From positions 128,001 through 192,000 of the forward strand of contig JBNRMN010000067.1 of NCBI GenBank assembly GCA_050309605.1: 64,000 nt of DNA. The letters are read 5' to 3'. The DNA is from Anaerohalosphaeraceae bacterium. Its GTDB lineage: Bacteria > Planctomycetota > Phycisphaerae > Sedimentisphaerales > Anaerohalosphaeraceae. Made by a program: the position numbers and the translations under genes. The first letter of the stretch is position 1, and each line of letters starts with the position of its first letter. Shown here in pieces: positions 33,040 to 58,849 of this stretch. The notes beneath the pieces are model-generated. The model had not been told where the DNA came from, did no database searches, and worked only from the letters and a program-made list of their open reading frames with translations.

Positions 33040-34011
33040 ATGCAGATTGCTGAATCGATTGAACAAATCAGCCAACTGCCTCGGGGTATGGCGCTGAGTA
33101 TTGGCAACTTTGACGGTGTGCATCGCGGGCACCAGACGATCATTGCCGCGGCCAAACGCGCCGCCGAGCAGCGCGGCGCGCAAACGGCGGTGATGACGTT
33201 TGATCCGCACCCGGCGGCGATATTACGGCCCGACAAGGCGCCGGGGGTGTTGACGCCTCTGCCGCAAAAGCTGCGTCTGCTCCAGGCGGCCGGGGTGGAT
33301 GTCGTGATTGTGATTCGCGACAGTTTGAGTCTGCTGAATCTGTCGCCGAGCGATTTTGTTGATCGGTTCCTGATGTCGCATCTGTCGCCGTCGGTGATTG
33401 TCGAAGGGCCGAATTTTACGTTCGGCTACGGTCGCAGCGGCACAATGCAGACGCTGCGCAAACTCGGTGCCGAGCGCGGTTTTGAGGTCATCGAGGCGCC
33501 GTTTACCGAGGTGCGGCTGGGCAAAGATCGGCGTGCGGCGACCTGTTCCAGCTCGCTGATTCGCGAGATGCTCGAAAAAGGCGCTGTCTTTGAGGCCGCC
33601 CAACTGCTGAGCCGTCCGTACCGATTGGCCGGATCGGTGGTGACCGGTCGCGGCATTGGACGAACCCTTGGGTTTCCGACCGCCAATGTGCATCCGGCTG
33701 GGCAAATTCTGCCGTCCGAGGGCGTGTATGCGGGCTATGTCGTGGTCGGCGGTTCGTTTGAGGACGTGTGCTTTGGCGGTCAGCGACGCCCGGCGGCGCT
33801 GAGCATCGGACGGGCCAAGACGTTCATTACCGATTATCCGCTGCTGCTGGAGGCGCATTTGCTGGAGGATAATGTTGAAAATCTCTACGGCCAATGGGTC
33901 GGACTGGACTTTATGGAGTGGCTGCGCAATCAGCGGCGGTTCACCTCACGGGAAGATCTGTCTGAGCAAATCGCCCAGGATTGCCGCGACGCTTTGGCGG
34001 TGCTGATATGA
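33040..34011 (+). CDS. ribF: bifunctional riboflavin kinase/FAD synthetase
   Basis: GNFDGVHRGH, TFDPHP, SSSLIRE, GRTLGFPTAN, LEAHLL. Confidence 0.95.
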   Translation: MQIAESIEQISQLPRGMALSIGNFDGVHRGHQTIIAAAKRAAEQRGAQTAVMTFDPHPAAILRPDKAPGVLTPLPQKLRLLQAAGVDVVIVIRDSLSLLNLSPSDFVDRFLMSHLSPSVIVEGPNFTFGYGRSGTMQTLRKLGAERGFEVIEAPFTEVRLGKDRRAATCSSSLIREMLEKGAVFEAAQLLSRPYRLAGSVVTGRGIGRTLGFPTANVHPAGQILPSEGVYAGYVVVGGSFEDVCFGGQRRPAALSIGRAKTFITDYPLLLEAHLLEDNVENLYGQWVGLDFMEWLRNQRRFTSREDLSEQIAQDCRDALAVLI

Positions 34012-34042
34012 GGTCAGAAGACAGAGGTCAGAGGACAGAGGT
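34010..34042 (+). repeat. 7-nt-period repeat (AGAGGTC/AGAAGAC/AGAGGAC), left arm of cassette
   Basis: gaggtcagaagacagaggtcagaggacagaggt; inverted partner at 34326-34352. Confidence 0.8.
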
Positions 34043-34046
34043 TGGA

Positions 34047-34297
34047 ATGGACGGTGCGATTCGAAACGTGAATGATTTGAAAGTTTATCGACTTGCTTAT
34101 CAAGACGCTACCTTCAGGTTTTTATACGTCACCTCAACGATGCTTTGGGGTCTGGAGAAGAAACGCGAGGCTGGCTGAATTTCTCTATGGATTGTGATTA
34201 TATCAACAAGGAGCAATTTCAGCGGCTGGACAGCCGCTACGATGAAGTGAATGCAATGTTGTATAGGTTAATGAATGGATGGAAAGACAGAAAGTAA
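34047..34297 (+). pseudogene. four-helix-bundle (23S rRNA IVS protein-like) gene with internal deletion and frameshift
   Basis: MDGAIRNVNDLKVYRLAYQ joined out of frame to RRYLQVFIRHLNDALGSGEETRGWLNFSMDCDYI..YDEVNAMLYRLM*. Confidence 0.8.
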
Positions 34298-34325
34298 AAT
34301 GAAGAAGGCAAAGGTTCGATTATCT

Positions 34326-34352
34326 CGACCTCTGACTTCTGTTCTCTGTCTT
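34326..34352 (-). repeat. 7-nt-period repeat, right (inverted) arm
   Basis: cgacctctgacttctgttctctgtctt is approximately the reverse complement of the left arm. Confidence 0.75.
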
Positions 34353-34383
34353 CAGTTCAAGAAAACAAGGAATATGATTTAGA

Positions 34384-35412
34384 ATGCCGAGCAACACGGA
34401 TTATGATCAAGTGGTGAAGGTATTGATGAACGCCGAGCGTGTGCTGTTGACGACGCATCTGCGTCCGGACGGGGACGGGTGCGGGTGTATGCGGGCGTTG
34501 ATGGAACATTTAACGTCCGCCGGCAAGACGGTGCATCCGCTGGTGCTCTCGCCGCTGGCCAATTGGTACGCGGAGTTGTTTGACGGCCCGGTGCCGGTGC
34601 TGGGCAATGACGTCCGGCCCGACGACCTGCCGCGGGTTTATGGCGATTGCGATTTGATGGTGATCGTCGATACAAACAGTCTGGTTCAGCTTCCGGGGCT
34701 GGAGGCCTTTATCGCGCATAGCCGCACGGCCGGTCGCCCGAAGATATTAGTCATTGATCACCATATTACCGGCGATCATCTGGGCGATGTGGAATTGCTT
34801 GATCCGGCTGCGGCTGCGGCCGGAGAAATCGTTTATGATTTGTTCAAGACGGTCGGGTGGGACATGACGCCGCGAATTGCCGAGGCGATTTTTGTTGCGC
34901 TGGCGACCGATACCGGCTGGTTCAAGTACGGCAACGCCGACAGCCGCATCTTTCATACCGCCGCCGAGCTGGTCAGCATCGGCGTGCATCCCAACGAGAT
35001 GTATCGACGGTTGTATCAGAGTTTTTCGCCCGCCCGGCTGGCACTGATGACACGGATGCTTGAGCACCTGGCCCTCCACGCCGACGGACGAATCGCCACC
35101 CAGTATATTCTGCGCAGGGATTTTGATGAAACAGGCGCATCCGGACCCGATACCGAAAATCTCATCGATGAATGCCAGCGGATCGGTACGGTTGAAGTGG
35201 CGGTGCTGCTGGTGGAGCTGTCCGACGGGCGGTTTCGCTGTTCGCTGCGAAGCAAAGGCGATGTGGATGTGCGGGCGATTGCCCAGGCCTATGGCGGCGG
35301 GGGTCATACGCTGGCGGCCGGGGTGACCATGGACGGGCCGCTTGATGCGGCGATGGAGCGGCTGGTGGAGGATGTCCGAGGTCAGATGGCAGAGGGCAGG
35401 TTCGGAATTTGA
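34384..35412 (+). CDS. nrnA: DHH family phosphoesterase (NrnA-like oligoribonuclease/PAP phosphatase)
   Basis: HLRPDGD, VDT, IDHH, TDTG, SLRS, GGGGH. Confidence 0.88.
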   Translation: MPSNTDYDQVVKVLMNAERVLLTTHLRPDGDGCGCMRALMEHLTSAGKTVHPLVLSPLANWYAELFDGPVPVLGNDVRPDDLPRVYGDCDLMVIVDTNSLVQLPGLEAFIAHSRTAGRPKILVIDHHITGDHLGDVELLDPAAAAAGEIVYDLFKTVGWDMTPRIAEAIFVALATDTGWFKYGNADSRIFHTAAELVSIGVHPNEMYRRLYQSFSPARLALMTRMLEHLALHADGRIATQYILRRDFDETGASGPDTENLIDECQRIGTVEVAVLLVELSDGRFRCSLRSKGDVDVRAIAQAYGGGGHTLAAGVTMDGPLDAAMERLVEDVRGQMAEGRFGI

Positions 35413-35462
35413 AATCTGAAAATTGAGATCAGATTTGAAATCATAGGATTTACAATTTGAGA
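35378..35462 (+). repeat. stacked 7-nt-period repeats (GAGGTCA/GATGGCA then ATTTGAA/ATCTGAA)
   Basis: Visible periodicity across the nrnA 3' end and the intergenic gap. Confidence 0.6.
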
Positions 35463-35468
35463 TGAGTA

Positions 35469-36806
35469 TTGGGTATCGGACCTCGAAAATACCAATTTGA
35501 TGTGTTGTCCGGTCGGTTTCTGGCGGCTCGGCTTCCGCTGCTGGCGGCGTCGGTGCTGCTGGTGTGTTTGAGTCTGGTGACGATTTATGCCATCGGACAT
35601 CCGCAGGTCGAGCCGGACAATCCGGCCGAGGCCGCCGAGCAGACGGGCCGGGACGAAGCATCGGTTCGCAGCGCGGCCGCGACCGGCCGCTATGCGGGCT
35701 ACTGGCTGCGGCAGGCGGGGTTCGCGGTGGTGGGGCTGGGGTGTTTGGTCGGCGTTAACCTCTTTGATTACAGGCGGTTAGGGCCATACAGCTACACGCT
35801 TTACGCGGTCATTCTGGCGCTGTTGATGGTGCTGATGATCGACAAATACATTGACCTGCCGTTTGTGCCGGTGGTCAACAATGCCCGGCGGTGGATTCGT
35901 GTAACGATTATGGGGCGCGATTTGCTCAACATCCAGCCGTCGGAGTTCTGCAAGGTTGGCTTTATTATTGCGTTGGCGTGGTATCTTCGGTTTCGCGAGA
36001 ATTATCGGACGTTCAAGGGACTGGTCGGGCCGTTCGCGATTACGCTGCTGGCGATTGTGCTGATTTTGCGGCAGCCGGACTTGGGGACGGTGATGCTGCT
36101 GATGCCGATCTTGTTTGCGATGCTGTTCGTGGCCGGGGCGCGGGTCAAGCATCTGTTGTTCATTATAATGATGGCGGCGCTGGCGGCGCCGGTCTTGTGG
36201 AATTTTATGCACAGTTACCAGCGAATGCGGATTGCGTCGGTGGCACTGCAGAATGAACGGATTTTTGAAGCGGTGCGGTCGCGTCCTCGGCTGGCCAATT
36301 ATCTGGTGGGCGACGCCGAGCGGCTGCGGACGTGGCGGCGGGACGAGGGCTACCACCTGCTGCACTCCAAACAGGCCATTGCGTCCGGCGGTCTGTGGGG
36401 GTATGGGCTGGGCAAAGGGCCGTACATACGCTACGATTACCTGCCCGAACGGCACAACGACTTTATTTTCGCGGCCATTGCCCATCAATTGGGCCTGGGC
36501 GGGTGTGTGGTGGTCTTGCTGCTGTATGCGGTGATTATTGCCACGGCGATGGAGATTGCATGGCTGAATACCGATGCGTTTGGTCGGCTTGTGGCCGCCG
36601 GCATCGGGGCGATGTTTGCGGTGGAGGTGTTGGTCAATATCAATATGACGCTGGGGCTGATGCCGATTACAGGATTGACGCTGCCGCTGTTGAGCTACGG
36701 CGGCTCGAGTATGGTCGTGCATATGATCGCTATTGGGCTGCTCAATAATATCGGACGCGACCGGCCGTTCTCCGTGGCCAAAAAGCCGTTTGAGTTTCAA
36801 AATTAG
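35469..36806 (+). CDS. SEDS family peptidoglycan glycosyltransferase (RodA/FtsW)
   Basis: ARRWI, IQPSEFCK, QPDLGT, YLPERHNDFIF, PITGLTLPLLSYGGSS; start uncertain. Confidence 0.92.
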   Translation: MGIGPRKYQFDVLSGRFLAARLPLLAASVLLVCLSLVTIYAIGHPQVEPDNPAEAAEQTGRDEASVRSAAATGRYAGYWLRQAGFAVVGLGCLVGVNLFDYRRLGPYSYTLYAVILALLMVLMIDKYIDLPFVPVVNNARRWIRVTIMGRDLLNIQPSEFCKVGFIIALAWYLRFRENYRTFKGLVGPFAITLLAIVLILRQPDLGTVMLLMPILFAMLFVAGARVKHLLFIIMMAALAAPVLWNFMHSYQRMRIASVALQNERIFEAVRSRPRLANYLVGDAERLRTWRRDEGYHLLHSKQAIASGGLWGYGLGKGPYIRYDYLPERHNDFIFAAIAHQLGLGGCVVVLLLYAVIIATAMEIAWLNTDAFGRLVAAGIGAMFAVEVLVNINMTLGLMPITGLTLPLLSYGGSSMVVHMIAIGLLNNIGRDRPFSVAKKPFEFQN

Positions 36807-36819
36807 AGGTCAGAAGACA

Positions 36820-37347
36820 CCAGCGCGGCACACCAGCGCGCACAACAGCGCGGCGGCGCAAGGGCGCGGTACAATAGCGCGGCGGCGCGAGCCGCCCGAT
36901 AAGGGGATGCGGGTGTATGGAGCGTTTTGCAAGTCGCCACATAATCCGGCCGCTTGCGCGGCTCGGCTGTTGTACGATGACGCGGCGCAACAGCGCGGCG
37001 GCGCAAGCCGCCCGATACGGGGATGCGGATAAATGGGACGTTTTCCAAGACGCCACAGGATCCGGCCGCTTGCGCGGCTCGGCTATTGTACGATGGCGCG
37101 GCGCAACAGCGCGGCACAATAGCGCGGCGGCGAAAGCCGCCCGATAGGGGGATGCGGATGGATGGGGCGTTTTCCAAGTCGCCACATAATCCGGCCGCTT
37201 GCGCGGCTCGGCTATTGTACGATGACGCGGCGCAACATCGCGGCACAACAGCGCGGCGGCGCGAGCCGCCCGATACGGGGATGCGGATAGATGGAGCGTT
37301 TTGCAAGTCGCCACATAATCCGGCCGCTTGCGCGGCTCGGCTGTTGT
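36820..37347. repeat. tandem array of four REP-doublet (BIME/REPIN-like) units, 117-129 bp period
   Basis: Each unit has a GCGGC-GMRA-GCCGC hairpin, a conserved ~45-nt spacer, and an inverted GCCGC-TTGC-GCGGC hairpin; units begin near 36871, 36988, 37116 and 37245. Confidence 0.88.
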
Positions 37348-37497
37348 GGGTATCGTCATCCGGCCGGTGGTGGGTAGCCGGATGCTGATTTTCAGGCTGA
37401 TAATGGGGGTTGTGAATAAAAATACGACGTAGCAGTACTGAAAAAGGCTGTTTTTTCGGGGTTTTTCAAAATTTTTTGTTCCTTCGGCAATTTTTTC

Positions 37498-37526
37498 TTG
37501 CAATGCATCGCGTTTTTTAGTATTAT
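37498..37526 (+). promoter_or_regulatory. sigma70 promoter
   Basis: TTGCAA-17 nt-TATTAT preceded by A/T tracts. Confidence 0.6.
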
Positions 37527-37712
37527 CAGCAGAGTACCAAGGAAGCTGAATTTCGGATGGGAGAATCCGGGGCGGTTTCGTGGCACACAGCGCGGCGAGC
37601 CGACAGGTTTGCCCGAAGCGAAAAAATGCGAGCGAGATGCCTTCGAGGCGCGGGGCCTTGAGGGTGATGTAAAATAGAGTAACCGAAGAAAAAGAGAAAG
37701 GGATGGTGTCAA

Positions 37713-38441
37713 ATGAGAAAAGTTCTGTTAAGTTTGCTCGTTATGGCTCTGGCAGTCCCGGCGTTCGCGGCGGTTGAGTTTTCCGCGGTGGACAACGGGG
37801 ATGGAACCGTGTCGGTGGTGATTGACACGGCTGATGTCGTGCGCGGTCTGGCCCTGAAGGTGACCTGCAGCGAAGGCGCTGAGCTGGTCGATCTGGAGCC
37901 GGAAGTCAACGCGGCGTTCAACACGTTCATCGACTTTGCTTTTACGACCGAAGCGGGTGCTCCGGGCACGTATGAAGTCGGCGACGGGCATCCGTTTGCG
38001 CTGGCTGATGAGGCCGGTGTGGCCGCGGCGGGCGCAACCGAGTTCAGCATCAGCATGGGCGTGCTGGATGAGGGCGGCAATCAGGAAGGCTTTGTCTCCG
38101 AAATCGGCGGCGAAGTGCTGATTACCTTCAAGACCGGCGCGGGAATGGTGTGCTTTGAGCTGGATACCCTTCGCGGCGGCGTGGTCGGCGATGAGGCCCT
38201 GACCACCAACCTCGACGATGAAGGCATCTGTGTCGCGGTCACCGATGGCCCGGAATGCTGGAACTACCCGAGGTTTGGCGAAGGCGATGGAAATGGCGAT
38301 GGTGTGATCACTTTTGCGGATTTACAGATATTGATTAATGCGTGGGCACCCAATCCTTACAATCCGTGTGCGGACTTCAACAAGGATGGTGTGGTTACAT
38401 TTGCGGACCTGCAGATTCTCATTAATAACTGGCCGCAATAG
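37713..38441 (+). CDS. secreted acidic protein with C-terminal dockerin-like domain
   Basis: Signal peptide ..VPAFA; DGNGDGVITFADLQILINAW and DFNKDGVVTFADLQILINNW. Confidence 0.85.
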   Translation: MRKVLLSLLVMALAVPAFAAVEFSAVDNGDGTVSVVIDTADVVRGLALKVTCSEGAELVDLEPEVNAAFNTFIDFAFTTEAGAPGTYEVGDGHPFALADEAGVAAAGATEFSISMGVLDEGGNQEGFVSEIGGEVLITFKTGAGMVCFELDTLRGGVVGDEALTTNLDDEGICVAVTDGPECWNYPRFGEGDGNGDGVITFADLQILINAWAPNPYNPCADFNKDGVVTFADLQILINNWPQ

Positions 38442-38588
38442 TATTGAGAAATAGAGTTTTTCATGTTTTAATGATTCACTCTAAATCAGTATAAGATAAA
38501 ATTAACACACACTTTACACCAAGTAAGTTAACGTTAACGTGAGTTTTGTTCGAACAAAAACAACAACAAGTTTTTCGAAAGGGGAACG

Positions 38589-39086
38589 ATGATGAAGAAG
38601 TTAATGGTTTTGAGTTTGGTTTTGGCAGTTGGTTCGATGGCGACAGCAGGTTTGTCTCTGACACCGTCGGAGCCACTCTTGTCTGGGACTTTGTCGATAG
38701 TCTTTGAGAAAACTGAAGCCGGTAACTTGGAAGGTTACGACTTGATCCTTCGAGTAGTCAGTGGCTCAGTCGTTTTCGGCGATGCATCATTAAGTGAAAA
38801 AGGTAATTGGATGGTTGCTCCTGCTTTTGTAGCCGGCGATCAACTGCGCATTTCAGCAGGGGCCTTCCCGGGTTTTGGTTTTTTAGGTCTGACCGAAGCT
38901 GATTCAATTTTGACCGTCGATTATGCTGGTGAAGAAGGTTCTGTAATTGAACTTTGGTCAGTAGCTACGACCATCGGTGGCGTTGACTATAACCAAACCA
39001 CTTTTGATTCTGTCACGTTGGTTCCCGAGCCGATGACGATGGGTCTGCTGGGTGTTGGCGCTCTGTTCCTGCGTCGGCGCAAATAA
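38589..39086 (+). CDS. PEP-CTERM sorting domain protein
   Basis: Signal peptide; VPEPMTMGLLGVGALFLRRRK. Confidence 0.9.
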   Translation: MMKKLMVLSLVLAVGSMATAGLSLTPSEPLLSGTLSIVFEKTEAGNLEGYDLILRVVSGSVVFGDASLSEKGNWMVAPAFVAGDQLRISAGAFPGFGFLGLTEADSILTVDYAGEEGSVIELWSVATTIGGVDYNQTTFDSVTLVPEPMTMGLLGVGALFLRRRK

Positions 39087-39130
39087 GCGAGACCGAACCG
39101 CTTAACCAAACTCGTAAAGACAATGTGTGT

Positions 39131-39167
39131 AAAGAGGCGCAGCCGCTGAGGCGGGCGCCTCTTTTTA
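39131..39167 (+). terminator. intrinsic terminator
   Basis: AAAGAGGCGC..GCGCCTCTTT stem followed by TTTTT. Confidence 0.75.
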
Positions 39168-39174
39168 TGTTTAA

Positions 39175-39500
39175 GCTCCTCCCCTGTCAAGGGGAGGTGG
39201 CCGCGCAGCGGCCGGAGGGGTATATTACAACCTCCGGTGCAGGCGGCTCATTAATTGTTTACCTTTTGGATGCCGCCCTATGCTGTATGTCACCATAGAG
39301 GCGCTCAGGTCGCTTCCCAGCGTTGCCTTATCCTCCCTATGGCAAAGGCATTATAGCCTGCCCTGCTGGAGTCTTAAAGCGTTAAATCCAAAATACTTAT
39401 AGTTTTCAAAGAGCATTTTTTATCAACTTTATTGGATAAGAGCCTACTTTTTTACACCCCCTCCCCCCTTCGGGGTACTCCCCCTTTGCAGGGGGAGAGC
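39175..39500. repeat. pair of inverted REP-like palindromes (CTCCCC..GGGGAG..GGGG family) enclosing a non-coding insert
   Basis: 39175-39221 and 39456-39500 are related double hairpins in inverted orientation. Confidence 0.7.
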
Positions 39501-39610
39501 ATTTAGCCGCGAGGCTGTGCCTCTTTTTTATTGACCAATGACGATTTAGAGTTTAGAATTATATTCGTGCCAATCCGTGCAATCTGTGGTTGAAAAGAGG
39601 GTAACGAGAC

Positions 39611-39895
39611 ATGCTCTAACAATCGAACAAATTAAACAGGCAGCCCAAAAAGCTGCATTGCATTATCCTATCCGCAAAGTTTTCCTGTTCGGGTCGTATG
39701 CGGCCGGATATGCGGATGAGACCAGTGACGTGGATATGCTGGTGGAATTTGCGGCCCATCCAATATCCCTTTTTGAATTGGCGGGCTTTAATCAGGAATT
39801 GCGGGACGAGTTGAATACATCGGTAGATACCGTGAAACTTCCGCTTAAGCAGGACAGCATTATTGATATAAATCAGGCGATTTGCTTGTATGAAC
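39611..39895 (+). pseudogene. MNT nucleotidyltransferase antitoxin with start out of frame
   Basis: LFGSYA.G.ADETSDVDMLVEF; the SD-preceded ATG at 39611 is out of frame (ATG CTC TAA, apparent 2-nt duplication); the natural stop appears lost. Confidence 0.7.
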
Positions 39896-39970
39896 GTATG
39901 GGAAACCGCAATAAAAAGCATTCCCGAATTGGGCAGGCAATTATGCGACATATTACGAGACGACCAATAA
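39890..39970 (+). pseudogene. remnant of a HepT/DUF86 HEPN toxin
   Basis: MN-VWETAIKSIPELGRQLCDILRDDQ*: start overlaps the MNT end and is fused to a DUF86-like C-terminal helix; RxxxxH core absent. Confidence 0.65.
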
Positions 39971-40124
39971 ACCTCTCGACTATCGAAATCCGAAACAAAT
40001 TCAAATGACAAAAAACGCAATGCTCCAAACCGGATCAAAACCTGATTAAAATTCTTCGTGCTCTTTGTGTCCTTCGTGGTATAATTCAGAAGTCAGAAGA
40101 CAGAGTTCAGAAAGGAACATTTTC

Positions 40125-40328
40125 ATGAAACTTCGTATTGTGTTGGAACCCAGCGACGAGGGCGGTTATACAGCTATCGTTCCGGTTCTTCCCGGCTGTA
40201 TCAGTCAGGGCGACACCCGTCAGCAAGCGCTGGAGAATATTCAGGAAGCCATCGCGCTTTATCTGGAACCGGTGGACGATGACTATAGCTTAAACGCCGA
40301 ATCGGAAGTTTTAGAGATCGCTGTATGA
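40125..40328 (+). CDS. hicB: HicB family antitoxin (short form)
   Basis: DEGGYTAIVPVLPGCISQGDTRQQALENIQEAIALYL; AAAGGAA RBS. Confidence 0.88.
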   Translation: MKLRIVLEPSDEGGYTAIVPVLPGCISQGDTRQQALENIQEAIALYLEPVDDDYSLNAESEVLEIAV

Positions 40329-40551
40329 GCAAGGTCCCCAGCCTGGATTATCGACAGGTTATTAATGCACTGAAGCGCGACGGGTGGGTTGTAGTGCGGC
40401 AAAAGGGCGTCATATTCGACTGCACAAGCATACGGCCGACAATATGCTGAAAATTACCATACCTGCCCACAAACCAATCAAGCGATCTACTTTGTCGCAT
40501 ATTCTAAAGCATGCACGAATACGTGTCGATAGATTGAATAAATTGCTGTAA
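40325..40551 (+). pseudogene. hicA: HicA mRNA interferase with a 1-nt deletion
   Basis: MSKVPSLDYRQVINALKRDGWVVVRQKG/(S)HIRLHK..ITIPAHKPIKRSTLSHILK; 227 nt long, with the frameshift at the G-S-H motif. Confidence 0.8.
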
Positions 40552-40725
40552 AATGATTGGTTTGTGTCAGGGGTTTAGATTTACCACGGAGAGCACGAAG
40601 GTCATGAAGTAAAGAGATAGAGATAAAAAAGAATGAATTTGAATTCTTCGTGCTCTTTGTGTCCTTTGTGGTTCATATAAATCCGTGTCCATCTGTGTAA
40701 TCCGCGGTTGATAGAGGAACAGACA

Positions 40726-41247
40726 ATGAACAATTCAACATTAAAAATTGCGTTTTTCCTTTTGCCTTTTGCCCTTTGCCTTTTGTCCGGCTGTCAGTCT
40801 TCGGTGCACAATATGCAGACGGCTTTTCCGAAAGAACTGGCGGGCGTTTGGCAGGTGGATTCAGGCCGTAAAGCGGTGGAACTGGACGAGGCGGGCAATC
40901 TTGTTTCATTTACCTTAGCGTCAGGTCTGAAGATTAATATTGCGGAGGGCGGATTGCATAAAAAAGGCCCGACTCAGGGTTCTATGCTTATGATAATCTT
41001 GGGGGAGGCGCCAGTTGAATTTGATCACAACACACGAGCTTTAAAGATTGCTATTCATTTTGAGGATTATCGGATTGAACTGCCCGGAGTTGATTTTTCC
41101 GGTACGATGACGGAAATTCTTGAAGGAACAGTCAACAAACACAATACGGAATGGCTGGCCACTTCAACCGTTACCGGTACGGTTGAAAATCTACCGCAGA
41201 TGGACGATACGACAGATACTCTTTATCTGTTTCGAAAGGTCAACTAA
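40726..41247 (+). CDS. hypothetical lipoprotein
   Basis: Lipobox LSGC; ELAGVWQ lipocalin-like start; GAGGA RBS. Confidence 0.75.
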   Translation: MNNSTLKIAFFLLPFALCLLSGCQSSVHNMQTAFPKELAGVWQVDSGRKAVELDEAGNLVSFTLASGLKINIAEGGLHKKGPTQGSMLMIILGEAPVEFDHNTRALKIAIHFEDYRIELPGVDFSGTMTEILEGTVNKHNTEWLATSTVTGTVENLPQMDDTTDTLYLFRKVN

Positions 41248-41253: not shown

Positions 41254-41793
41254 TTAATAGGCATAGAAGTTTACACCTTCCGAGTCGGTTTCCGGATAAT
41301 CAAGGCGCACTTCTTTAGTTTTGGGTTTGTATATCCAGCCGTACTCTCCCGATGCCTCGGCGGGAAAAGATTCCGAATCGCCAAGAATCCGAAAATCATC
41401 TTTTTTATTGAAAGGGTTTTTCGGCAATTCGTTAAAATAAGGACCATAGATATATGAACCACTTTTTGTTTTTTGCAAAATGGTGTCGCCGTTAATGTTG
41501 GTACAATAGAGAAGTTGCGCATTTACAATAAATGTATGATCCGAGAATACACCGTTCAAGTAGCCTGGCGGCATTCCGTTGTGTTCGGCGGTGTATCTTT
41601 CGATGGCTTCTCTGAGGAGTTTTAGGTTGGCTTTGGCCTGGGTTTCTTTTGCTTTTTGTTGGTGGTTTTGGAATTCGGGGATGACGACGGCGGCCAGGAT
41701 GCCGAGGATGGAGACGACGATCATCAATTCCACGAGCGTGAACGCTCGTGGAATTAGTTTTGAGTTTTGAGTTTTGAGTTTTGAGTTTTTCAA
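41254..41793 (-). CDS. type II secretion/type IV pilin-like protein (GspG-like)
   Basis: RA|FTLVELMIVVSILGILAAVVIP, YGPYFNELPKNPF; start uncertain. Confidence 0.85.
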   Translation of the reverse strand: MKNSKLKTQNSKLIPRAFTLVELMIVVSILGILAAVVIPEFQNHQQKAKETQAKANLKLLREAIERYTAEHNGMPPGYLNGVFSDHTFIVNAQLLYCTNINGDTILQKTKSGSYIYGPYFNELPKNPFNKKDDFRILGDSESFPAEASGEYGWIYKPKTKEVRLDYPETDSEGVNFYAY

Positions 41794-42025
41794 GTTTTTT
41801 AGTTCGCAGTTTTTGGTTTATTATATCTTTTTTTATGTCGTCATATCTATACACGGTGTACTTATCGGCCTGTTTTTTGCACGGATTCACTGATTTTCAC
41901 TGATTTTTAACCGCGGATTACGGGGCTTGCGGGGATTTTTTATTTTTCTATTTAATCCTTATGATTTATAGTTTGGTTTACTCTGTGTAATCCGTGAAAT
42001 CTGTGGTTTCAATGAAGAGGTTATT

Positions 42026-43291: not shown

Positions 43292-43365
43292 TTGTTGTTC
43301 GTTTGCAGGTCGTCGTTTTGAGTTTTGAATTGGATTGGTCAGCGGCGTTCGATTGATGTTAACAG

Positions 43366-50711: not shown

Positions 50712-50729
50712 CGATTGACTAACTCGGAC

Positions 50730-50823: not shown

Positions 50824-50991
50824 ATGGCCAAGGCACAGAAAACCGAATGGGTTTGGCTTGAGTGTAAAGAGTGCGGCGACCGCAATTATCGTACGCCCGT
50901 CAATGTTCAGGGCGGTGTGCCGAAGATTGAATTGAAGAAATTCTGCAAGCGCGACCGCACGCATACGGTTCATAAGATCCGTCGCAAGTAG
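50824..50991 (+). CDS. rpmG: 50S ribosomal protein L33
   Basis: MAKAQKTEWVWLECKECGDRNYRT..IELKKFCKRDRTHTVHK; below the ORF-track length cutoff. Confidence 0.95.
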   Translation: MAKAQKTEWVWLECKECGDRNYRTPVNVQGGVPKIELKKFCKRDRTHTVHKIRRK

Positions 50992-50999
50992 CGGCACAC

Positions 51000-51072
<73 letters not shown>

Positions 51073-51126
51073 TTTTTATCGGCACCGTGATACCGAACGA
51101 GACGACGGCGATCCTGTTTCTATGAG

Positions 51127-51528: not shown

Positions 51529-51560
51529 CAGCAGCGGGCTTGGTCAAGGACACAGCGTCA

Positions 51561-52106: not shown

Positions 52107-52208
52107 GGTGTGCCCGCGGGGCGGTTTGCCCCTTAATGCATACCTGGATTTTTGATGGGTTGAGGCCCATTTTGTGAGAGACAGGCACCTATTATCGGGA
52201 TTTGTTCA

Positions 52209-52634
52209 ATGGCTAAAGAAGTAAAAGCGGTCATCAAGCTTCAGGCGCCGGGCGGTAAAGCGACGCCGGCGCCTCCGATTGGTCCGGCGTTGGGTCAGCA
52301 CGGCGTGAATATCGGTCAGTTTGTTTCGCAGTTCAACGAGCGAACACGGGACGCCGACGGAATGACGATACCGGTTGAAATTACGGTGTACGGGGATCGT
52401 TCATTTGATTTTATTGTCAAAAGTCCGCCGGCGGCGGTGCTGCTGAAGAAAGAGGCGAATCTGGCCAAGGGCAGCGGCGTGCCGAATAAGGAAAAAGTCG
52501 GCAAAGTGACCCGGGCGCAGATTCGCAAGATCGCGGAAACGAAATTCAACGACTTGAACGCGTATGATCTTGAGCAGGCCGACCGAATTATTGAAGGCAC
52601 GGCCCGAAGCATGGGCATCGAAGTAGAAGGTTAA
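52209..52634 (+). CDS. rplK: 50S ribosomal protein L11
   Basis: [22 protein letters not shown]. Confidence 0.98.
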
Positions 52635-52638
52635 GAGA

Positions 52639-52769
52639 AAATTTGAAATATGAAATTCTAAATCCGAAACAAGTGTCATATTCAAATCACAAACGATTCA
52701 ACCAGATTGAGCGGAAGTGTTATGAGTGTTTGGATTTGTTTCGAATTTCGATATTTGAATTTCGATATT
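52639..52769. repeat. inverted pair of 7-nt-period AAATxxG arrays
   Basis: aaatttgaaatatgaaattctaaatccgaaacaa ... ttgtttcgaatttcgatatttgaatttcgatatt. Confidence 0.75.
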
Positions 52770-52850
52770 AGACTGTGATGTTCTGAAAAGAACCTGCAAA
52801 CCACGGCAGCGACGGTGGGAGCGAAACGACATTTTTTCGCGGAGAACAAG

Positions 52851-53537
52851 ATGCAATTTCGAAGTAAACGTTACAAGGCCGACGCCCAGAAAGCGGTCAA
52901 AGAGCCGCTGAGTCTGAACGAGGGCGTCAAGAAAGTGAAAACTTTTGCCAGCACCAAGTTTGATCAGACGGTTGAATGCGTGATGCATCTGGGTATCGAT
53001 CCCAAGCAGGCCGACCAGATGATTCGCGGCGCAATCAGTCTGCCGCACGGTATCGGCAAATCGCGTCGTGTGGTCGCCTTTTGCGACGATTCGGAGGTCG
53101 AAGCGGCCCTGGCCGCCGGTGCGATTGAGGCCGGCAGCGATGAGCTGATCAAGAAGATTTCAGACGGCTGGCTGGATTTTGATGTGGCGATTGCCTCACC
53201 GAAGGTGATGGGCAAAGTCGGCAAACTGGGTCGAGTGCTCGGCCCGCAGGGCAAGATGCCTTCGCCCAAGAACGGGACGGTGACGGCCGATGTGGTGACG
53301 GCCATCAAGGAATTTGCGGCCGGCAAGGTCGAGTTTCGCAATGATTCGGGTGGCAATGTGCACGGCGTGGTCGGCAAGCTGAGTTTTGACGACGCGAAGC
53401 TGAAGGAGAATATCCAGGCGTTTATCGATCACATTAAACGCAGCAAGCCCAGCGGCGCCAAAGGGACGTATATCAAAAAGGTGTGTATCAGCGCGACGAT
53501 GAGTCCGTCGGTGGTGCTGGACGTGGGTGGTGCGTAA
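52851..53537 (+). CDS. rplA: 50S ribosomal protein L1
   Basis: [29 protein letters not shown]. Confidence 0.98.
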
Positions 53538-53574
53538 GAATAACATAAACAGTCAACGGTAAAAAGGCCAAAGT

Positions 53575-54108
53575 ATGAGTTATTTTGTAAAAGAACTGAT
53601 TCAGAGCGATTACAGCGCGAAGTTTGCCGGGATGACGGAGTTTGTGGTGATTTCCACGATGGGCGTCAGCGGGATCAATAACAATGTGATGCGCGGCGAG
53701 TTGAAGCAAAAGGGGATGCGTGCGGTTGTCGTTCGCAACAATTTGATGCGTCGGGCATTGGATGAGCTGGGGTTGTCGCCGGCTGCCGGGTTGTTCGCGT
53801 CGGGGCAGTGTACGGTGGTGTTCGGCGGCGACGGGGCCGGCAGCGTCGCCAAGGAAGTGGTCGAATGGGCTAAAAAGCTCAAGACGATTCAGCTCAAAGG
53901 CGCGTTCGTTGAAGGTACCGTGATGGACGGCGAAGCGGGCGTCAAGGCGCTGGCGGCGATGCCGACGCGAGCCGAGCTTCAGGGTCGCGTGGTGCAAATT
54001 GCTCTCTCGCCGGGCAGCAACGTGGCCGGGGCGATTTTGGGCGCTGGCAGTACGATTGCCGGCTGCATCAAGAGCCTGATCGAGCAGCGCGAAAAAGAAG
54101 CGGCATAA
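53575..54108 (+). CDS. rplJ: 50S ribosomal protein L10
   Basis: VVRNNLMRRAL, LAAMPTRAEL; conserved position. Confidence 0.93.
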   Translation: MSYFVKELIQSDYSAKFAGMTEFVVISTMGVSGINNNVMRGELKQKGMRAVVVRNNLMRRALDELGLSPAAGLFASGQCTVVFGGDGAGSVAKEVVEWAKKLKTIQLKGAFVEGTVMDGEAGVKALAAMPTRAELQGRVVQIALSPGSNVAGAILGAGSTIAGCIKSLIEQREKEAA

Positions 54109-54351
54109 GTAAATTAAAAAGGCAAAAGGCAGATGGCAAACGTGTGGAGCCGACCTTTGGCCGCGGATGTTTTGATTTAAGGTCAGTCATTTGAAGCTTG
54201 GGATTTGAGGTGACGGATAGCGCCAAGCTCAAATCCAAGAGCTAAGAACTAAGAACTAATTCGGATTGCTGCAGAGTTGCCCGAGCAAGCGGTTAAACGG
54301 ACGGCGGAGTCCGGCTACTTTGCGGCGCAGTGTATAACAGGAGTTTATAAA

Positions 54352-54753
54352 ATGTCGGAACGTGAATTTGCAGCGGACATCAAAGAACTGGGAGACAAGA
54401 TTGCGGGGTTGACCCTGATTCAGGCCAAGGAACTGGCGGATTATCTGAAGGACGCCTATGACATCGAGCCGGCTTCGGGCGGCGCGGTGATGGTGGCCGG
54501 TCCGGCGGCGGGCGGCGGCGAAGGCGATCAGGCCGAAGAGAAGACCAGCTTTACGGTGATGCTCAAGAGCATCGGCGATAAGAAGATCCAGGTGATCAAG
54601 GAAGTGCGCGCCCTGACCAATCTGGGGCTGAAGGAAGCCAAAGACCTGGTCGATGGCGCTCCCAAGCCTGTCAAGGAAAACGTCAGCAAGGACGAGGCCG
54701 AGGCGGCCAAGAAGCAGCTTGAAGAAGCCGGCGCGACGGTGGAACTGGTTTAA
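54352..54753 (+). CDS. rplL: 50S ribosomal protein L7/L12
   Basis: [28 protein letters not shown]. Confidence 0.98.
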
Positions 54754-55058
54754 CGGTGTTGATGGGTACGGAGGTTTTATGCCGCGCGGCCGGTTGAACC
54801 GGCGCGGCCGGAATAACGAGGCAGCGACCGCGTTGTTCGAAATAAAGACCGATAACATAAGCCCGAACGGCGGCCGGGACAAACGTTCCGGCCGCTGCGG
54901 GTCTTGATGTTTTTAGGGGGCAGGCGGGCGGTTGTCACGGAACCGGGACGCTTGTGCCTTGAAATTCGGATTCCGAGTTGAGCGTTTTGTCGATAAGCGC
55001 TGTTTGTGTAATTATTCAATAGTTAATGAACGCATCAAGCATAATGGAGACTGGTCGC

Positions 55059-58000
55059 ATGAGATCACGAACACTCCGTAATTTTGCGAAAATCGCGGAT
55101 GCCATTGAAGTTCCCGATCTGATAGAAGTGCAGCTGAAAGGCTACGAGCGTTTTCTGCAGTCCGATGCGGCGCCGGATCAGCGCGCCGATATCGGTCTGG
55201 AGTCGCTGTTTCGGGAAGTGTTTCCGATCGTCAGCTATGACAAGACGGTTGAGCTGGAATATCTGGGCTACGAGCTGGAGAAGCCGCGTTATACCATTGA
55301 ACAGTGCAAGGAATTGCGTCTGAGCTATGCCTATCCGCTGAAAGTGCACTGTCGGCTGAAACGCAAGGATGCGCCCGATGTGGCCGAGCAGGGGATTTAT
55401 CTGGGCGAGATTCCGGCGATGATCGGCGGCGGCGAGTTTATCATCAACGGGGCCGAGCGTGTCATCGTCAATCAGCTTCACCGCAGTCCGGGTGTGGATT
55501 TTGTGATTGACAACAAGGACGGCGACCGGCTGCTGCACGGGGCGCGGATTATTCCCGAACGCGGAAGCTGGATCGAGATGAGCGTGACCAAAAAAGACGT
55601 GCTGGTGATTCGCATTGACCAGTCCAGCAAGATTCCGGCCACGGCGTTTCTGCGGGCGATGGATGAAAAATACGGCAAGACCGAAGAGATTCTGCGTCTG
55701 TTTTACAAGACCCAGAAGATCAAGACCAAGAAGCTGGAGCCGACGATGTGGGCGGTCGGGCCGGTTGTCGATACCGAAACCGGCGAGATTCTCGTGGAGG
55801 CCGGCACGCAGATCGGCGATGCGATTACGGCGCTTCAGGCCAGCAGTCTGGACGCGGTGGAAGTGATTGCTCAAGTGCTTGATCCGCTGGTACTGAATAC
55901 GGTTGCCGAGGACGGTTGTGAGACGCATGATGAGGCATTGCTGAAGATTTATTCGCGTCTGCGTCCGGGCAACCCGGCCAATCTTGAGAAGGCCAAACAG
56001 CTCTTTGAGGAGAAATTCTACGATACCAATCGGTATCGTCTCGGTGCGGTCGGTCGATTTCGTCTGAATCGCAAGTTCGGCACCGACATTGAGTTGAGCG
56101 AGATGCGGTTGTGTGCTGAGGACTTTTTGCAGACGATGAAGTATATTCTCGGCCTGCGCAACGGCGAAGGGGAGATTGACGATATTGACCATCTGGGCAA
56201 CCGTCGGGTACGGACGATTGATGAGCTGGCGGCCGGCGAGGTGCGCAAAGGCCTGCTCAAGCTGCGGCGAACGGTCCAGGAACGGATGAGTATGAAATCG
56301 CCCGAAGAGATCGCGCGGATCGCGGATCTGGTCAACAGCAAGAGCGTTTCGAGCAGCATTGAGTTTTTCTTCGGTCGGGGTGAACTGAGTCAGGTGGTCG
56401 ATCAGACCAATGCGCTGAGTCAGTTGACGCATGAACGGCGTTTGAGTGCACTGGGGCCGGGCGGGTTGAACCGCAAACGCGCCGGCTTTGAGGTGCGCGA
56501 CGTGCACATCAGTCACTACGGCCGTGTGTGTCCGATTGAGACGCCGGAAGGGACGAACATCGGGCTGATCGTGTCGCTGGGGATATTCTCCAAGGTCGAT
56601 GAATACGGCTTTTTGATTACGCCGTATCGCAAGGTCAAAAATAAGCAGGTCGTCGATGAAATTGCTTATCTGCGGGCCGACGAGGAAATGAAGGCGATTT
56701 TTGCGCCGCCGAGTATGGTCGATACCTCGACCAATCGACTGCACGAAGGGCTGGTGCTGGCGCGGCAGGAAGGCGACTTGACGCAGGTGGACAGCAGTCA
56801 GGTCGATTATGTTGACGTCTCGCCGCGACAGACGGTGGGTGTTTCAGCGGCGTTGATTCCGTTTTTGGAGCACGACGACGCCAACCGCGCGCTGATGGGG
56901 TCCAATATGCAGCGTCAGTCGGTGCCGCTGCTGACCACCGAGCCGCCGCTGGTGGGGACGGGTATGGAAGTGGAAGTAGCCAGGCATTCGAGCATGGTCG
57001 TGCGGGCGCGACAGGCCGGGACGGTCACGGCGGTTGATGGGTCGTGCATCGTGATTGATCAAACCGATGAGTATCCGCTCAGGAAGTTTGTCGGTCTGAA
57101 TGAGCGGACGTGTCTGAATCAAAGGCCCGTCGTGACGCTGGGCCAAAAGGTTGAAAAGGGCCAGATCATCGCCGACGGCGGAGGCACCAGCGAGGGAGTG
57201 CTGGCGCTGGGACGGAATGTGCTGGCGGCATTTGTGCCGTTTGACGGGTATAACTTCGAGGATGCGATTTTGATCAGCGAACGGCTGGTCAAAGACGACG
57301 TGTTCACGAGTGTTCATATTGATGAGTTCAGCATTGAAGTGCGCGAGACCAAGCTGGGGCGTGAAGAATTCACGCGGGATATTCCCAACGTCAGCGAAAA
57401 GGCGCTGCGCAATCTGGATGAATACGGCGTCGTCCGCGAAGGGACGCGGGTTGCGCCGGGCGATATTCTGGTCGGCAAGGTGTCGCCCAAGAGCAAGACC
57501 GAACTGACGCCGGAAGAAAAGCTGCTGCATGCGATTTTCGGACGCGCCGGCGAAGATGTCAAAAACGATTCACTGGAGGTGCCGCACGGCTACGAAGGCG
57601 TGGTCATCAAGACGCGGCATTTCCGCCGTCGGGCTGCCGAGACCGACGAGCAGCGCAAGCTCCTCAAAGAGCAGATGAAGCGCCGCGAGCGCGAAATGAC
57701 CGCCCGCGAATGCGAGGTGTTCAAACGGATGATGGAGACGATTCATTCGGAGCTGCAGATTGAGGTGGTCGATCCGACCAGTCGTCAGAAGGTCGGCGCC
57801 AGCGACGATGTGGATGTGATTTATGAGCAGATTGAAAACTTTGATATTGAATGGGTCAAGCCTGCATCCAAACGCGGCGACGCGCAGAAGATCGTCGATC
57901 GGTATTGGCCCAAGCTGGTGGAACTGAAAGACCAGAAGAAGCGCGAGCTGGAGCGGCTCAAACACGGCGACGAGCTGCCCAGCGGGGTGCTGGAGATGGT

Positions 58001-58814
58001 CAAGGTTTATATTGCGACCAAACGGACGTTGTCGGTCGGCGACAAGATGGCCGGACGGCACGGTAACAAGGGCGTGATCGCCAAGATTATGCCGGTGGAA
58101 GATATGCCGTATCTTGAGGACGGTACGCCGGTGGATCTCTGTCTGAATCCGCTGGGCGTGCCCAGTCGTATGAACGTCGGTCAGATTCTGGAAACGCTGT
58201 TGGGCTGGTCGGCCAACGTGCTGGGCTTTCGCGCGATCACGCCGGTGTTTGCCGGCGCCAGCGAGGATGACATTGTCGCGGCGATCGAAGAGGCCAACGC
58301 CCATGTTCGCAGTCGGGTTCAGGAGATTGAGCAGCAAAAGGCCGTACCGCCGGCGGATGAGATTTTTGCGCAGATGCCGCCGTCGCTCAAGATGCCGCTG
58401 TATGACGGACGAACGGGCGAGCCGTTTTTGCAGGAAGTGACGGTCGGGTATATGTATATTCTGAAGCTGCACCATCTGGTGGACGACAAGATTCACGCGC
58501 GTTCGACCGGACCGTACAGCCTGATTACGCAGCAGCCGCTGGGCGGCAAGGCGCGAACGGGCGGACAGCGTTTCGGCGAGATGGAAGTCTGGGCGCTGGA
58601 GGCGTACGGTGCGGCCTATACGCTTCAGGAATTGCTGACGGTCAAGAGCGACGACATCGAAGGCCGGACCAAGATTTATGAGTCGATGGTCAAGGGCACG
58701 AACACCCTTGAGGCCGGTACGCCGATTTCGTTTGATGTCTTGTGCAATGAAATTCGCGGGCTGGGCCTGAATATCCAGCTTGAAAAGAAACGGATCGGCG
58801 TAACGCCCTTGTAA
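55059..58814 (+). CDS. rpoB: RNA polymerase beta subunit
   Basis: [47 protein letters not shown]. Confidence 0.99.
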
Positions 58815-58849
58815 GAATTAAGAATTAAGAATTCAAAATTAAGAATTAA
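58813..58849 (+). repeat. AAGAATT 7-mer tandem repeat between rpoB and rpoC
   Basis: aagaatt aagaatt aagaatt caaaatt aagaatt. Confidence 0.8.

Follow-up and report, generated by a model that had tools for sequence, protein, structure and literature searches.

A 64,000-nt stretch of the genome of an Anaerohalosphaeraceae bacterium (assembly GCA_050309605.1, contig JBNRMN010000067.1, positions 128,001 to 192,000 of the forward strand; here referred to as the window and numbered from its first letter) was found to carry short-period repeats, with units of 7 or 9 nt, at gene junctions from about 33 kb onwards. A preceding sequence-only reading had taken these repeats for a single family which marks gene junctions and brackets small cargo genes, and had suggested a transposase-free system of cassette insertion and exchange. 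The analysis reported here renders it moderately probable that most of the repeats are the terminal arms, or the orphaned single arms, of two very small cassette families, one associated with genes for four-helix-bundle (4HB) proteins and the other with genes of the GxxExxY type. The window possesses ~56% G+C, and its purD shows at most 86% identity to uncultured Phycisphaerae/Sedimentisphaerales (Anaerohalosphaeraceae-like) genomes. Past 33 kb nearly every gene resides on the plus strand, the order being ribF, a 4HB gene remnant, nrnA, rodA, a 129-nt tandem repeat and the genes of a dockerin protein and a PEP-CTERM protein, followed by a low-G+C island (38.4-42.0 kb) with mntA, hicB, hicA, a lipoprotein gene and a prepilin gene, the latter on the minus strand. 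Behind the island lie purD, a yhdP-like gene and a HEAT-repeat gene, and then tRNA-Thr, tuf, tRNA-Trp, nusG, rplK, rplA, rplJ, rplL, rpoB, rpoC and rpsL. The GC skew stays near 0 until ~33 kb and then amounts to +0.1 to +0.34 up to the window end, a rise which sets in where the genes become all plus-strand and the arrays first appear. For comparison, 80 loci from relatives (L001 to L080) were used, of which L005 represents the closest relative of the window.

All arrays which the sequence-only reading had listed were recovered, by Tandem Repeats Finder (TRF) and by reading of the sequence, at or few bases from the positions given there, with TRF reporting period-7 or period-14 arrays at 34010, 34330, 35378, 40086, 40748, 41756, 52739, 54117, 54237 and 58812. 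A strict test identified five arrays of period 7, all at or beyond 33 kb, while the other periods from 4 to 15 gave zero to two each, except for period 14, which is a re-detection of the period-7 arrays. With a looser match-fraction test eight period-7 arrays were obtained, as compared to a mean of 0.4 and a maximum of 2 in 30 Markov shuffles; seven of these eight locate to 33 kb or beyond, and the one array in the first 33 kb, where the earlier reading had noticed none, resides at 13822, is GC-rich and part of a coding region. Other periods stayed close to expectation in this test too, again except for period 14. Period 7 was thus found to be enriched in the window, but period 9, as an open tandem repeat, was not. 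Searched for as a tandem repeat, period 9 yielded three arrays, none of them at a flagged site, and was redefined as an element of three units. The 9-nt elements consist of exactly three units; five forward ones are present in the window versus 0.36 in shuffles, and the motif TYYGTG-N3-TYYGTG gave eight matches versus 0.13 expected, all of them between 39574 and 42005. Likewise, GTCAGARGACAGAG with up to two mismatches was found at five dispersed sites of the window versus 0.35 expected. Three inverted pairs were identified, namely 34004-34042 with 34326-34359, 52645-52672 with 52736-52763 and 40054-40081 with 40582-40609.

Placement at stop codons was found as described earlier: arrays start inside, or at most 8 nt past, the stops of ribF, rodA, rplK, rplJ and rpoB, and the nrnA stop codon sits within an array. 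Assuming uniform placement within the five spacers, the joint chance was estimated, post hoc, to be ~6e-7. Among the relatives' loci 24 arrays were found in 16 of the 80, five of them in L007 alone. Abutment to the upstream stop recurs in relatives, with gaps of 3 and -1 nt (two sites of L039), -16 nt (L007), -2 nt (L020), 4 nt (L024) and -13 nt (L069).

The first cassette fills the spacer between ribF and nrnA and is made up of three features:

34004 to 34042, plus strand: left purine-rich heptamer arm, GAGGTCA GAAGACA GAGGTCA GAGGACA GAGGT (TRF period 7/14), beginning within the ribF stop codon.
34047 to 34297, plus strand: 4HB pseudogene (23S rRNA intervening sequence (IVS) protein, TIGR02436 family), residues 22-60 deleted and frame changed.
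34326 to 34359, plus strand: right pyrimidine-rich arm, inverted complement of the left arm, ending 25 nt before the nrnA start.

What had been described as a four-helix cassette gene is indeed bracketed by inverted arms, but the gene is broken by an internal deletion. Comparison (tblastn) with the intact 124-aa protein P0001 of a relative, which scores 106.5 bits on TIGR02436, revealed 95% identity for residues 1-21 and 100% for residues 61-124; the window copy thus underwent a recent internal deletion, and its C-terminal piece reaches 32.3 bits on PF05635 versus a cut-off of 33.8. The arms are complementary to 77% over 31 nt and to 85% over 26 nt, their conserved unit being GTCAGAR/GACAGAG together with its inverted complement. 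RNA folding pairs both arms around the 4HB remnant at -110.9 kcal/mol (z -3.48, 0/100 shuffles as good), and the 4HB flanks pair at -48.3 kcal/mol versus -26.8 for shuffles, none out of 200 being as good. Arms of the same type were identified at three further sites:

35378 to 35468, plus strand: orphan 4HB-type arm plus heptamers at the nrnA 3' end, ~13 heptamers in a single register.
36804 to 36818, plus strand: truncated orphan 4HB-type arm AGAGGTCAGAAGAC, overlapping the rodA stop (sequence and arm alignment).
40083 to 40112, plus strand: orphan 4HB-type arm TTCAGAA GTCAGAA GACAGAG TTCAGAA, 16 nt upstream of the hicB ATG.

The first of these, an arm GAGGTCA GATGGCA GAGGGCA continued by AATYTGA-type units, fills the whole nrnA-rodA spacer, whereby the last seven codons of NrnA, past its conserved ...QM end, fall into the array. 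Within a sample of 120 NrnA relatives, 14 possess tails of 4 aa or more, and three of these tails are translations of the same heptamer type (e.g., SEVRSQKSEV and TEDRG), which places a 4HB-type arm next to nrnA in at least three further genomes. The sequence CAGARGWCAGAG was found in none of the 80 loci, hence this arm type is not traceable in the fetched relatives. Just past rodA, 36853-37373 is taken up by 3.9 tandem copies of a 129-nt unit, each with an own 29-nt inverted repeat (CAACAGCGCGGCGGCGCAAGCCGCCCGAT and its complement); this array adjoins the truncated AGAGGTCAGAAGAC arm as well as three copies of the 13-nt repeat ACACCAGCGCGGC and is without Rfam match.

That such arms belong to 4HB genes had been predicted, and the link was found to hold in independent genomes. 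A tblastn search with P0001 gave 40 plasmid records, mostly from Nostocales and including plasmids of Nostoc sp. PCC 7120; ten of the records were examined. At nine of these ten loci the flanks of the 4HB gene (60 nt upstream, 70 nt downstream) pair better than all 200 shuffles, and at eight a purine-rich tandem array upstream opposes its complement downstream, with periods of 7-9 and units such as CAGGGAG, GCAGGGGA and GACAGAG. As a control, only one out of 110 random small open reading frames (ORFs) from L001 to L080 was found to possess flanks beating all 100 shuffles, and this exception proved to be another 4HB gene, with heptamer arms of ACAGCGT. On Azospirillum lipoferum AZO_p2 the 4HB ORF resides inside a large-subunit rRNA gene (Rfam, 525.7 bits) and hence is a true IVS; its arms align with those of the window on the left and on the right, the right arms at 80% column identity. 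In L088 (Pseudanabaena galeata plasmid pPg_01, 167-863) the 4HB gene lies between cas6 and cas4, with (AAAGCTA)16 upstream and (AAAGCCA)10 downstream in direct orientation and reverse-type units further upstream. The accessible text on two Flavobacterium columnare genomes (PMC5524665) gives a further housekeeping junction with a gene of this family, a 'four helix bundle protein' being encoded between guanylate kinase and nadD with ~35-nt spacers. Four of the ten plasmid loci (L082, L084, L089 and L090, all Nostocales plasmids) carry a tyrosine recombinase gene directly beside the 4HB gene.

A further view on the flanks came from predicted proteins, as gene callers sometimes run into flanking DNA, which is then revealed by protein extensions. 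For 150 diverse 4HB cluster representatives, translated G[ATG]CAGA[AGT] arrays of at least two tetrapeptides were identified in 7 of 32 N-terminal extensions (shuffle mean 0.59, maximum 4), while the reverse type was found in none of the 32 but in 4 of 62 C-terminal extensions (shuffle mean 0.21); the domain cores gave 1/150 and 0/150. Among the 40 closest 4HB homologues two N-terminal extensions and four C-terminal tails translate such arrays. An amino-acid test for period 7 was weakly positive (3 of 20 N-terminal and 3 of 40 C-terminal extensions), and the tetrapeptide test was used instead. The earlier idea that periodicity rather than sequence is conserved is true in part: 4HB units do vary between lineages (GACAGAG, CAGGGAG, GCAGGGGA, ACAGCGT and AAAGCTA, with periods 7-9), but within each family the arm sequence itself is kept across phyla.

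The second family was recognized by its 9-nt units, which in the window accumulate in the low-G+C island and its border to purD, where the following features were identified:

39564 to 39590, plus strand: forward arm of three 9-nt units (3x9 arm), TTCGTGCC AATCCGTGC AATCTGTGGTT, at the mntA 5' end, with a possible GTG start inside.
39586 to 40008, plus strand: solo MntA-type nucleotidyltransferase antitoxin gene (Pfam; NCBIfam MntA 42.2 bits, below the cut-off of 60).
40045 to 40081, plus strand: forward 3x9 arm upstream of hicB, left member of a 28-nt inverted and of a 36-nt direct pair.
40128 to 40551, plus strand: hicB (intact) and hicA (split over two frames), from Pfam and three-frame translation.
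40581 to 40674, plus strand: 'empty' hairpin module, in which a 36-nt A-rich loop joins a reverse to a forward 3x9 arm.
40679 to 40706, plus strand: forward 3x9 arm (AATCCGTG type), followed after 20 nt by the lipoprotein start.
40748 to 40785, plus strand: 5.4 copies of TTGCCTT (TRF), the AAAAGGC type in reverse complement, within the signal-peptide codons (FFLLPFALCLL) of the lipoprotein gene.
41726 to 41791, minus strand: 4.9 copies of CAAAACT plus a perfect 14-nt palindrome, replacing the usual MKK start of the prepilin gene.
41879 to 42005, plus strand: reverse arms separated by a 40-nt A/T-rich spacer from a forward 3x9 arm CTCTGTGTA ATCCGTGAA ATCTGTGGTT, between the divergent prepilin gene and purD (z -2.73 for the fold).

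The 3x9 arms of the window enclose hicB with the hicA pseudogene, or nothing; they flank the solo mntA and precede the lipoprotein gene and purD. For hicBA, enclosure by repeat arms stands as earlier described, namely by a 28-nt inverted pair (75% complementary, 500 nt apart) and by a 36-nt direct pair (92% identical), but hicA (40325-40551) is frameshifted, its frame being split at ~40415. The supposed 'MNT-HEPN' cassette does carry a 3x9 arm at mntA, but MntA is alone, since no HepT remnant was detected next to it (best E 0.89); the tail of the mntA ORF runs through AAATCCGAAAC-type repeats at ~39976. In L005 an intact MntA/HepT pair is found directly upstream of purD. Upstream of mntA, at 39170-39235 and 39440-39520, terminator-like stems come after G-rich/C-rich hairpins (CCCCTGTCAAGGGGAGG; CCCCCTTCGGGG...CCCCCTTTGCAGGGGGAG). 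Here also falls the sole weak Rfam match, Chlorobi-1 at 39441-39501 (22.8 bits versus a gathering score of 50), which is outside the arrays; the arrays themselves matched no Rfam family at gathering or E<=1 thresholds. In the prepilin gene (41254-41793, minus strand) the palindrome lies within 41726-41755, and the codons just before AFTLVEL are the reverse complement of the TLVEL codons; the usual ATG-AAA-AAR start is missing, which leaves a TTG upstream of the CAAAACT array as the sole in-frame start. In L038 and L043 the prepilin gene possesses the usual start and begins with ATGAAAAA(G/A)GC; the window gene may be damaged or phase-variable. The heptamer arrays in the 5' ends of the lipoprotein gene (40748-40785) and the prepilin gene (41756-41789) could be phase-variation switches or insertion damage.

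An element of the same construction but with other cargo was identified in L004, where a GxxExxY gene (PD-(D/E)XK) resides directly upstream of purD between three near-identical hairpin modules, in each of which an A-rich loop separates a reverse from a forward arm; the two which were folded gave z -7.4 and -8.95. A block of ~130 nt is duplicated on both sides of the GxxExxY gene (1-134 and 620-753), comprising a forward-arm end, 43 nt and a complete module; the contig ends inside it, and repeats of the L004 type probably break assemblies. A covariance model was built from the three L004 modules only, because MAFFT mis-registered the window module by one unit. With this model the empty module of the window, located after hicA, was found at 40.1 bits (E 4e-7), its RNA fold of -31.8 kcal/mol (z -4.5) not being reached by any of 200 shuffles; within 1.26 Mb searched, full modules were found only in L004, the window and L039. 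The general arm form is three 9-nt units, which read CCAC(R)RAG... at one side of the cassette and ...CTYYGTG...GTGGT at the opposite side. In the window itself tblastn of the L004 protein gave no match at E<=1, hence a GxxExxY ORF (TIGR04256/PF13366) was not detected there.

The link of the repeats to GxxExxY genes, likewise predicted, was confirmed in independent genomes. Of eight plasmid records obtained by tblastn with the L004 protein six were examined, and arms of three 9-nt units on both sides of the gene were identified in Gemmatirosa (with complete modules on both sides), Bacteroides finegoldii and Sphingomonas parapaucimobilis; Bernardetia shows three-unit arms by eye only, Treponema one unit on each side, and around the Persicobacter gene no 9-nt arms were found. 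The junctions occupied by these plasmid genes are those of radA with an FAD-dependent protein gene, of ade with manC and of fabD with fabG. An alignment of eleven forward arms (window, three relatives, Bacteroides, Gemmatirosa) revealed a mean column identity of 72%, an invariant T..G every 9 nt and a common GYGGT end. The fabD-fabG case provides a filled and an empty site: in S. parapaucimobilis the order is fabD-[arm-ORF-arm]-fabG, with the cassette starting 8 nt past the fabD stop, while in S. paeninsulae fabD and fabG are ~30 nt apart. Within the 80 relatives' loci, all three with a 4HB or GxxExxY gene (L003, L004, L036) carry periodic flanking arrays. The swapping of cargo between strains, as proposed earlier, finds some support in the different cargo of relatives at the purD junction and in this filled/empty pair, but mostly reflects ordinary synteny loss: the region upstream of purD is rearranged across the order, so that most cargo differences there are to be read in this way, and informative comparisons are limited to the window, L005, L038 and L043, which share the prepilin-purD order, and to L004.

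A third group of arrays, rich in A/T, resides further downstream:

43315 to 43335, plus strand: degenerate GTTTTGA heptamers, 24 nt past the purD stop.
52639 to 52770, plus strand: cargo-less inverted pair AAATTTG.../...CGAAATT around 63 nt, starting 5 nt past the rplK stop.
54117 to 54140, plus strand: AAAAGGC AAAAGGC AGATGGC (TRF), 8 nt past the rplJ stop.
54237 to 54259, plus strand: 3.3 copies of CTAAGAA (TRF), upstream of rplL.
58812 to 58849, plus strand: 5.4 copies of TAAGAAT (TRF), with the rpoB stop in the first unit.

The A/T-rich heptamers (AAATYTG, AAAAGGC, CTAAGAA, TAAGAAT, AGTTTTG) are without cargo link in the window, and neither cassette family explains them; possible origins are further arm families or the growth of simple repeats by slippage. 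The GTTTTGA/AGTTTTG unit forms a full hairpin after purD in L007. The fold of the rplK-rplA pair is weakly above chance (z -2.02, 8/200 shuffles as good), and this element is absent in L005, where the spacer shows no relation to that of the window until a conserved leader before rplA is reached. That stretch (52785-52850 in the window, 12005-12070 in L005; AACCTGC...ACCACGGCAG.GA..GTGGGAGCGAAACGA..TTTTTCGCGGAGA) resembles an L1-binding leader, here located in front of rplA instead of rplK, and it gave no Rfam match at E<=1. The TAAGAAT array has no significant fold (z -0.89); as the rpoB stop lies within its unit, it offers TAA in all three frames. Promoter-like sites are not enriched (12 versus 8.0 +/- 2.9), and none was found in an A/T-rich loop.

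Taken as a whole, the five sequence types of the earlier reading do not form one family; at least two arm families exist, each with its own cargo family. Both kinds of cassette sit in spacers between co-directional genes, and no promoter or transposase gene of their own was found. A Pfam scan of 51 ORFs of the 64 kb identified no transposase, integrase or other recombinase domain and no REP-associated tyrosine transposase (RAYT, REP standing for repetitive extragenic palindrome). The idea of a transposase-free cassette exchange system is therefore partly supported, as arms do bracket small selfish genes and a transposase is lacking in the 64 kb, but it is not one system. The association of arms and cargo is kept across phyla, the arms have pairing potential, the cargo is decaying (internal deletion of the 4HB gene, frameshift of hicA, loss of HepT), and cassettes are present in some relatives and absent in others.

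With regard to mechanism, the arms would pair in the transcript into a stem of 25-30 bp, which may be cut by RNase III in analogy to what was published for rRNA intervening sequences. A cassette within an operon or an rRNA gene would thereby become tolerable and would be transcribed from the host promoter; processing by RNase III would thus explain why cassettes are tolerated in rRNA genes and tight operons and need no promoter. Arms built of tandem units could pair in several registers, so that the stem would survive copy-number slippage, and orphan arms would be the remnants of lost cassettes. Homing driven by the GxxExxY nuclease is a guess.

Several findings weigh against this cassette reading. 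In the relatives' loci cargo was found next to arrays at only 2 of 22 array sites, both of them the GxxExxY case of L004, hence arrays mark junctions far more often than they bracket cargo, and Pfam identified ordinary genes as neighbours of 18 sites (gspD/gspE, manC/ruvX, apt/aroB, purD/yhdP, gyrA, purE). In the window three of the four 4HB-type arms are solo, and the A/T-rich arrays fold at or barely above chance (z -0.89 to -2.2). Direct rather than inverted arrays were found at two of the ten plasmid 4HB genes (L086, L088) and at the GxxExxY gene of L036. The filled/empty pair at fabD|fabG shows no visible target-site duplication, and where the ORF stands between complete hairpin modules, as in L004 and Gemmatirosa, the unit of insertion is ambiguous. 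The window stems favour the plus strand via G.U pairs, but the relatives are without this asymmetry, and the sense-strand bias is inseparable from a mutation bias because of the strong GC skew of the region. As to sampling, the ten plasmid 4HB loci were hand-picked from the match list, not taken at random, and the 110 control ORFs came from other genomes than the plasmid loci and include unverified ORFs.

Among other explanations, the one which survives best, although it is considered rather improbable, regards the arrays as ordinary long simple-sequence repeats grown in place by replication slippage, with junctions simply holding non-coding DNA; loops of 5-11 nt escape repair, and heptamers would be the commonest class. 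According to the accessible texts of PMC4679880 (summarising Mrazek 2007) and PMC4692102, heptanucleotides make up the largest class of long simple repeats in many prokaryotes, and polymerase slippage was put forward as their origin. Many unit types, degenerate arrays and an entire spacer in a single register fit this view, as does the very uneven array density among related genomes; moreover, the native C-terminal codons ...RxQM share the register of the nrnA array, which could thus have been seeded in place. Growth in place would, however, not account for identical 14-mers at dispersed sites, for arms in inverted pairs around cassettes, for arm sequences kept across phyla along with their cargo or for 9-nt elements which always have three units. 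Furthermore, slippage adds units but cannot delete the sequence separating a stop codon from an array.

Less probable still is the view that the arrays are post-transcriptional signals, i.e., sites for an RNA-binding protein or ribosome stand-by sites (repeated GAGG or A/U-rich tracts) which tune translation of the next cistron, with the lipoprotein and prepilin arrays being frame-shifting phase-variation switches. Translational regulation was proposed for the intergenic TAACTGA heptamers of Beggiatoaceae, some of them in ribosomal-protein operons (accessible text of PMC4679880). In the window, L004, L039 and L043 the forward 3x9 arms end 4-25 nt before starts, the purine-rich arms present GAGG every 7 nt, arrays persist at the nrnA and purD 3' ends of relatives with 76-81% protein identity, and any gain or loss of a 7-nt unit in a coding 5' end changes the reading frame. 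Against such a role, the window arrays abut stops rather than starts, L005 is without arrays at rplK-rplA and purD-yhdP, TAACTGA is absent from the window (one match at 3 mismatches versus 1.7 expected), and no candidate binding protein was identified.

The last alternative, in which the hairpin modules are sites of a dedicated site-specific system (integron-like attC, or REP and REPIN hairpins with a RAYT) that swaps promoter-less cassettes, draws on the alternation of module, cargo and module in L004, Gemmatirosa and the window, which resembles a cassette array, on the imperfect 85-95 nt hairpins with regularly spaced mismatches, on toxin-antitoxin and small-nuclease cargo as typical of chromosomal integrons, and on the tyrosine recombinase genes beside four of the ten plasmid 4HB genes. 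REPINs are inverted REP doublets in extragenic space (accessible text of PMC3116915). It is nevertheless very improbable, as neither an integrase nor a RAYT or other recombinase was found in the 64 kb and the cassettes stand single between housekeeping genes, not arrayed beside an attI. The attC core sites read GTTRRRY (R') and RYYYAAC (R''), whereas the arm ends, compared by eye, read GYGGT followed by variable bases, only some with GTTGAA and without a consistent GTTRRRY, and a strict three-unit 9-nt periodicity is not a known feature of attC or REP.

Considering the reading of two cassette families with conserved arms as the preferred one, the better description of the locus is that of two or more junction-dwelling mini-cassette families with conserved periodic arms, plus simple heptamer arrays outside them. 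A wider reading, to be regarded as doubtful when all its parts are taken jointly, sees the rRNA intervening sequences as the best-known members of a general class of operon-dwelling mini-cassettes, in which an Avd-like 4HB or a GxxExxY ORF resides between inverted arms of tandem 7-9-nt units, with RNase III excision, self-driven spread and co-option of orphan arms. Here, a register-tolerant RNA stem, excised by RNase III from any host RNA with high transcription, would keep the cost of insertion between essential genes low, as at fabD|fabG, cas6|cas4, ribF|nrnA and rplK|rplA. Spread would be brought about by the cassettes' own ORFs, that is by nuclease homing for GxxExxY and possibly by a reverse-transcriptase partner for the Avd-like protein. 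Orphan arms might be co-opted by hosts as spacers, leader peptides or switches, and other cargo (HicBA, MntA) could ride between the same arms.

The origin of rRNA intervening sequences and their means of movement are called unclear in the accessible text of PMC4990558. Both questions date back to ~1990, and a further one concerns the roles of the very common 4HB and GxxExxY 'hypothetical' families. They are now approachable by comparative genomics and RNA work, as both families travel with their own conserved periodic inverted arms, an IVS-type element lives between protein-coding genes, and filled and empty sites are findable. Cassette arms would also explain the odd short-period repeats at gene junctions, which break assemblies and cause spurious N- or C-terminal extensions in environmental gene calls. 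Full-text literature searches, which had subscription journals and database family notes outside their scope, revealed no link of heptanucleotide repeats to Planctomycetes, nor of 4HB or GxxExxY genes to heptamers or tandem repeats.

Compared with known systems, the likeness to integron cassettes, to REP elements and REPINs and to miniature inverted-repeat transposable elements (MITEs) is one of architecture only. Like integron cassettes, those described here are promoter-less, have imperfect hairpin bounds whose structure is better kept than their sequence and can carry toxin-antitoxin cargo, but they lack an integrase or attI in the 64 kb and a consistent attC core and are scattered singly between housekeeping genes. 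With REP elements, bacterial interspersed mosaic elements (BIMEs), REPINs and MITEs they share the form of small extragenic hairpins near gene ends, cargo-less copies being commoner and an internal transposase being absent. Correia elements are an example of MITE-type extragenic palindromic elements. Unlike in these REP- and MITE-type elements, the arms are internally periodic, full-length forms carry a 4HB or GxxExxY ORF, and neither a RAYT gene (64 kb) nor a target-site duplication (fabD|fabG) was seen. The TAACTGA repeats of marine Beggiatoaceae, some Cyanobacteria and Bacteroidetes, and the cyanobacterial short tandemly repeated repetitive (STRR) sequences, are as in the window intergenic tandem heptamers with a patchy phylogeny, also found in ribosomal-protein operons (MacGregor 2015, accessible text of PMC4679880, in which no link to 4HB or GxxExxY genes is drawn). 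The window differs by its other units, by many inverted pairs around small ORFs and by abutting stops rather than starts; the likeness to STRR, mentioned earlier, is only a resemblance. The closest known kind to the 4HB element of the window is the S23p-type rRNA IVS (Leptospira, Coxiella, Brucella and Xanthomonas types). The Coxiella 23S IVS, according to the accessible text of PMC4990558, holds a decaying S23p (4HB) ORF and a 28-bp terminal inverted-repeat stem cut by RNase III, and it displays AGAAGA followed by tandem GACAGAT heptamers, the copy number of which varies among strains. In the window (GACAGAT)2 within 3 mismatches gave 12 matches, six of them in the arrays, and Rfam identified no rRNA gene. 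Common to both are thus a TIGR02436/PF05635 ORF in decay, terminal inverted repeats of ~30 nt and heptamers of the GACAGAN family upstream, whereas the window element resides between the protein genes ribF and nrnA instead of an rRNA helix and is accompanied by orphan arms at other gene junctions.

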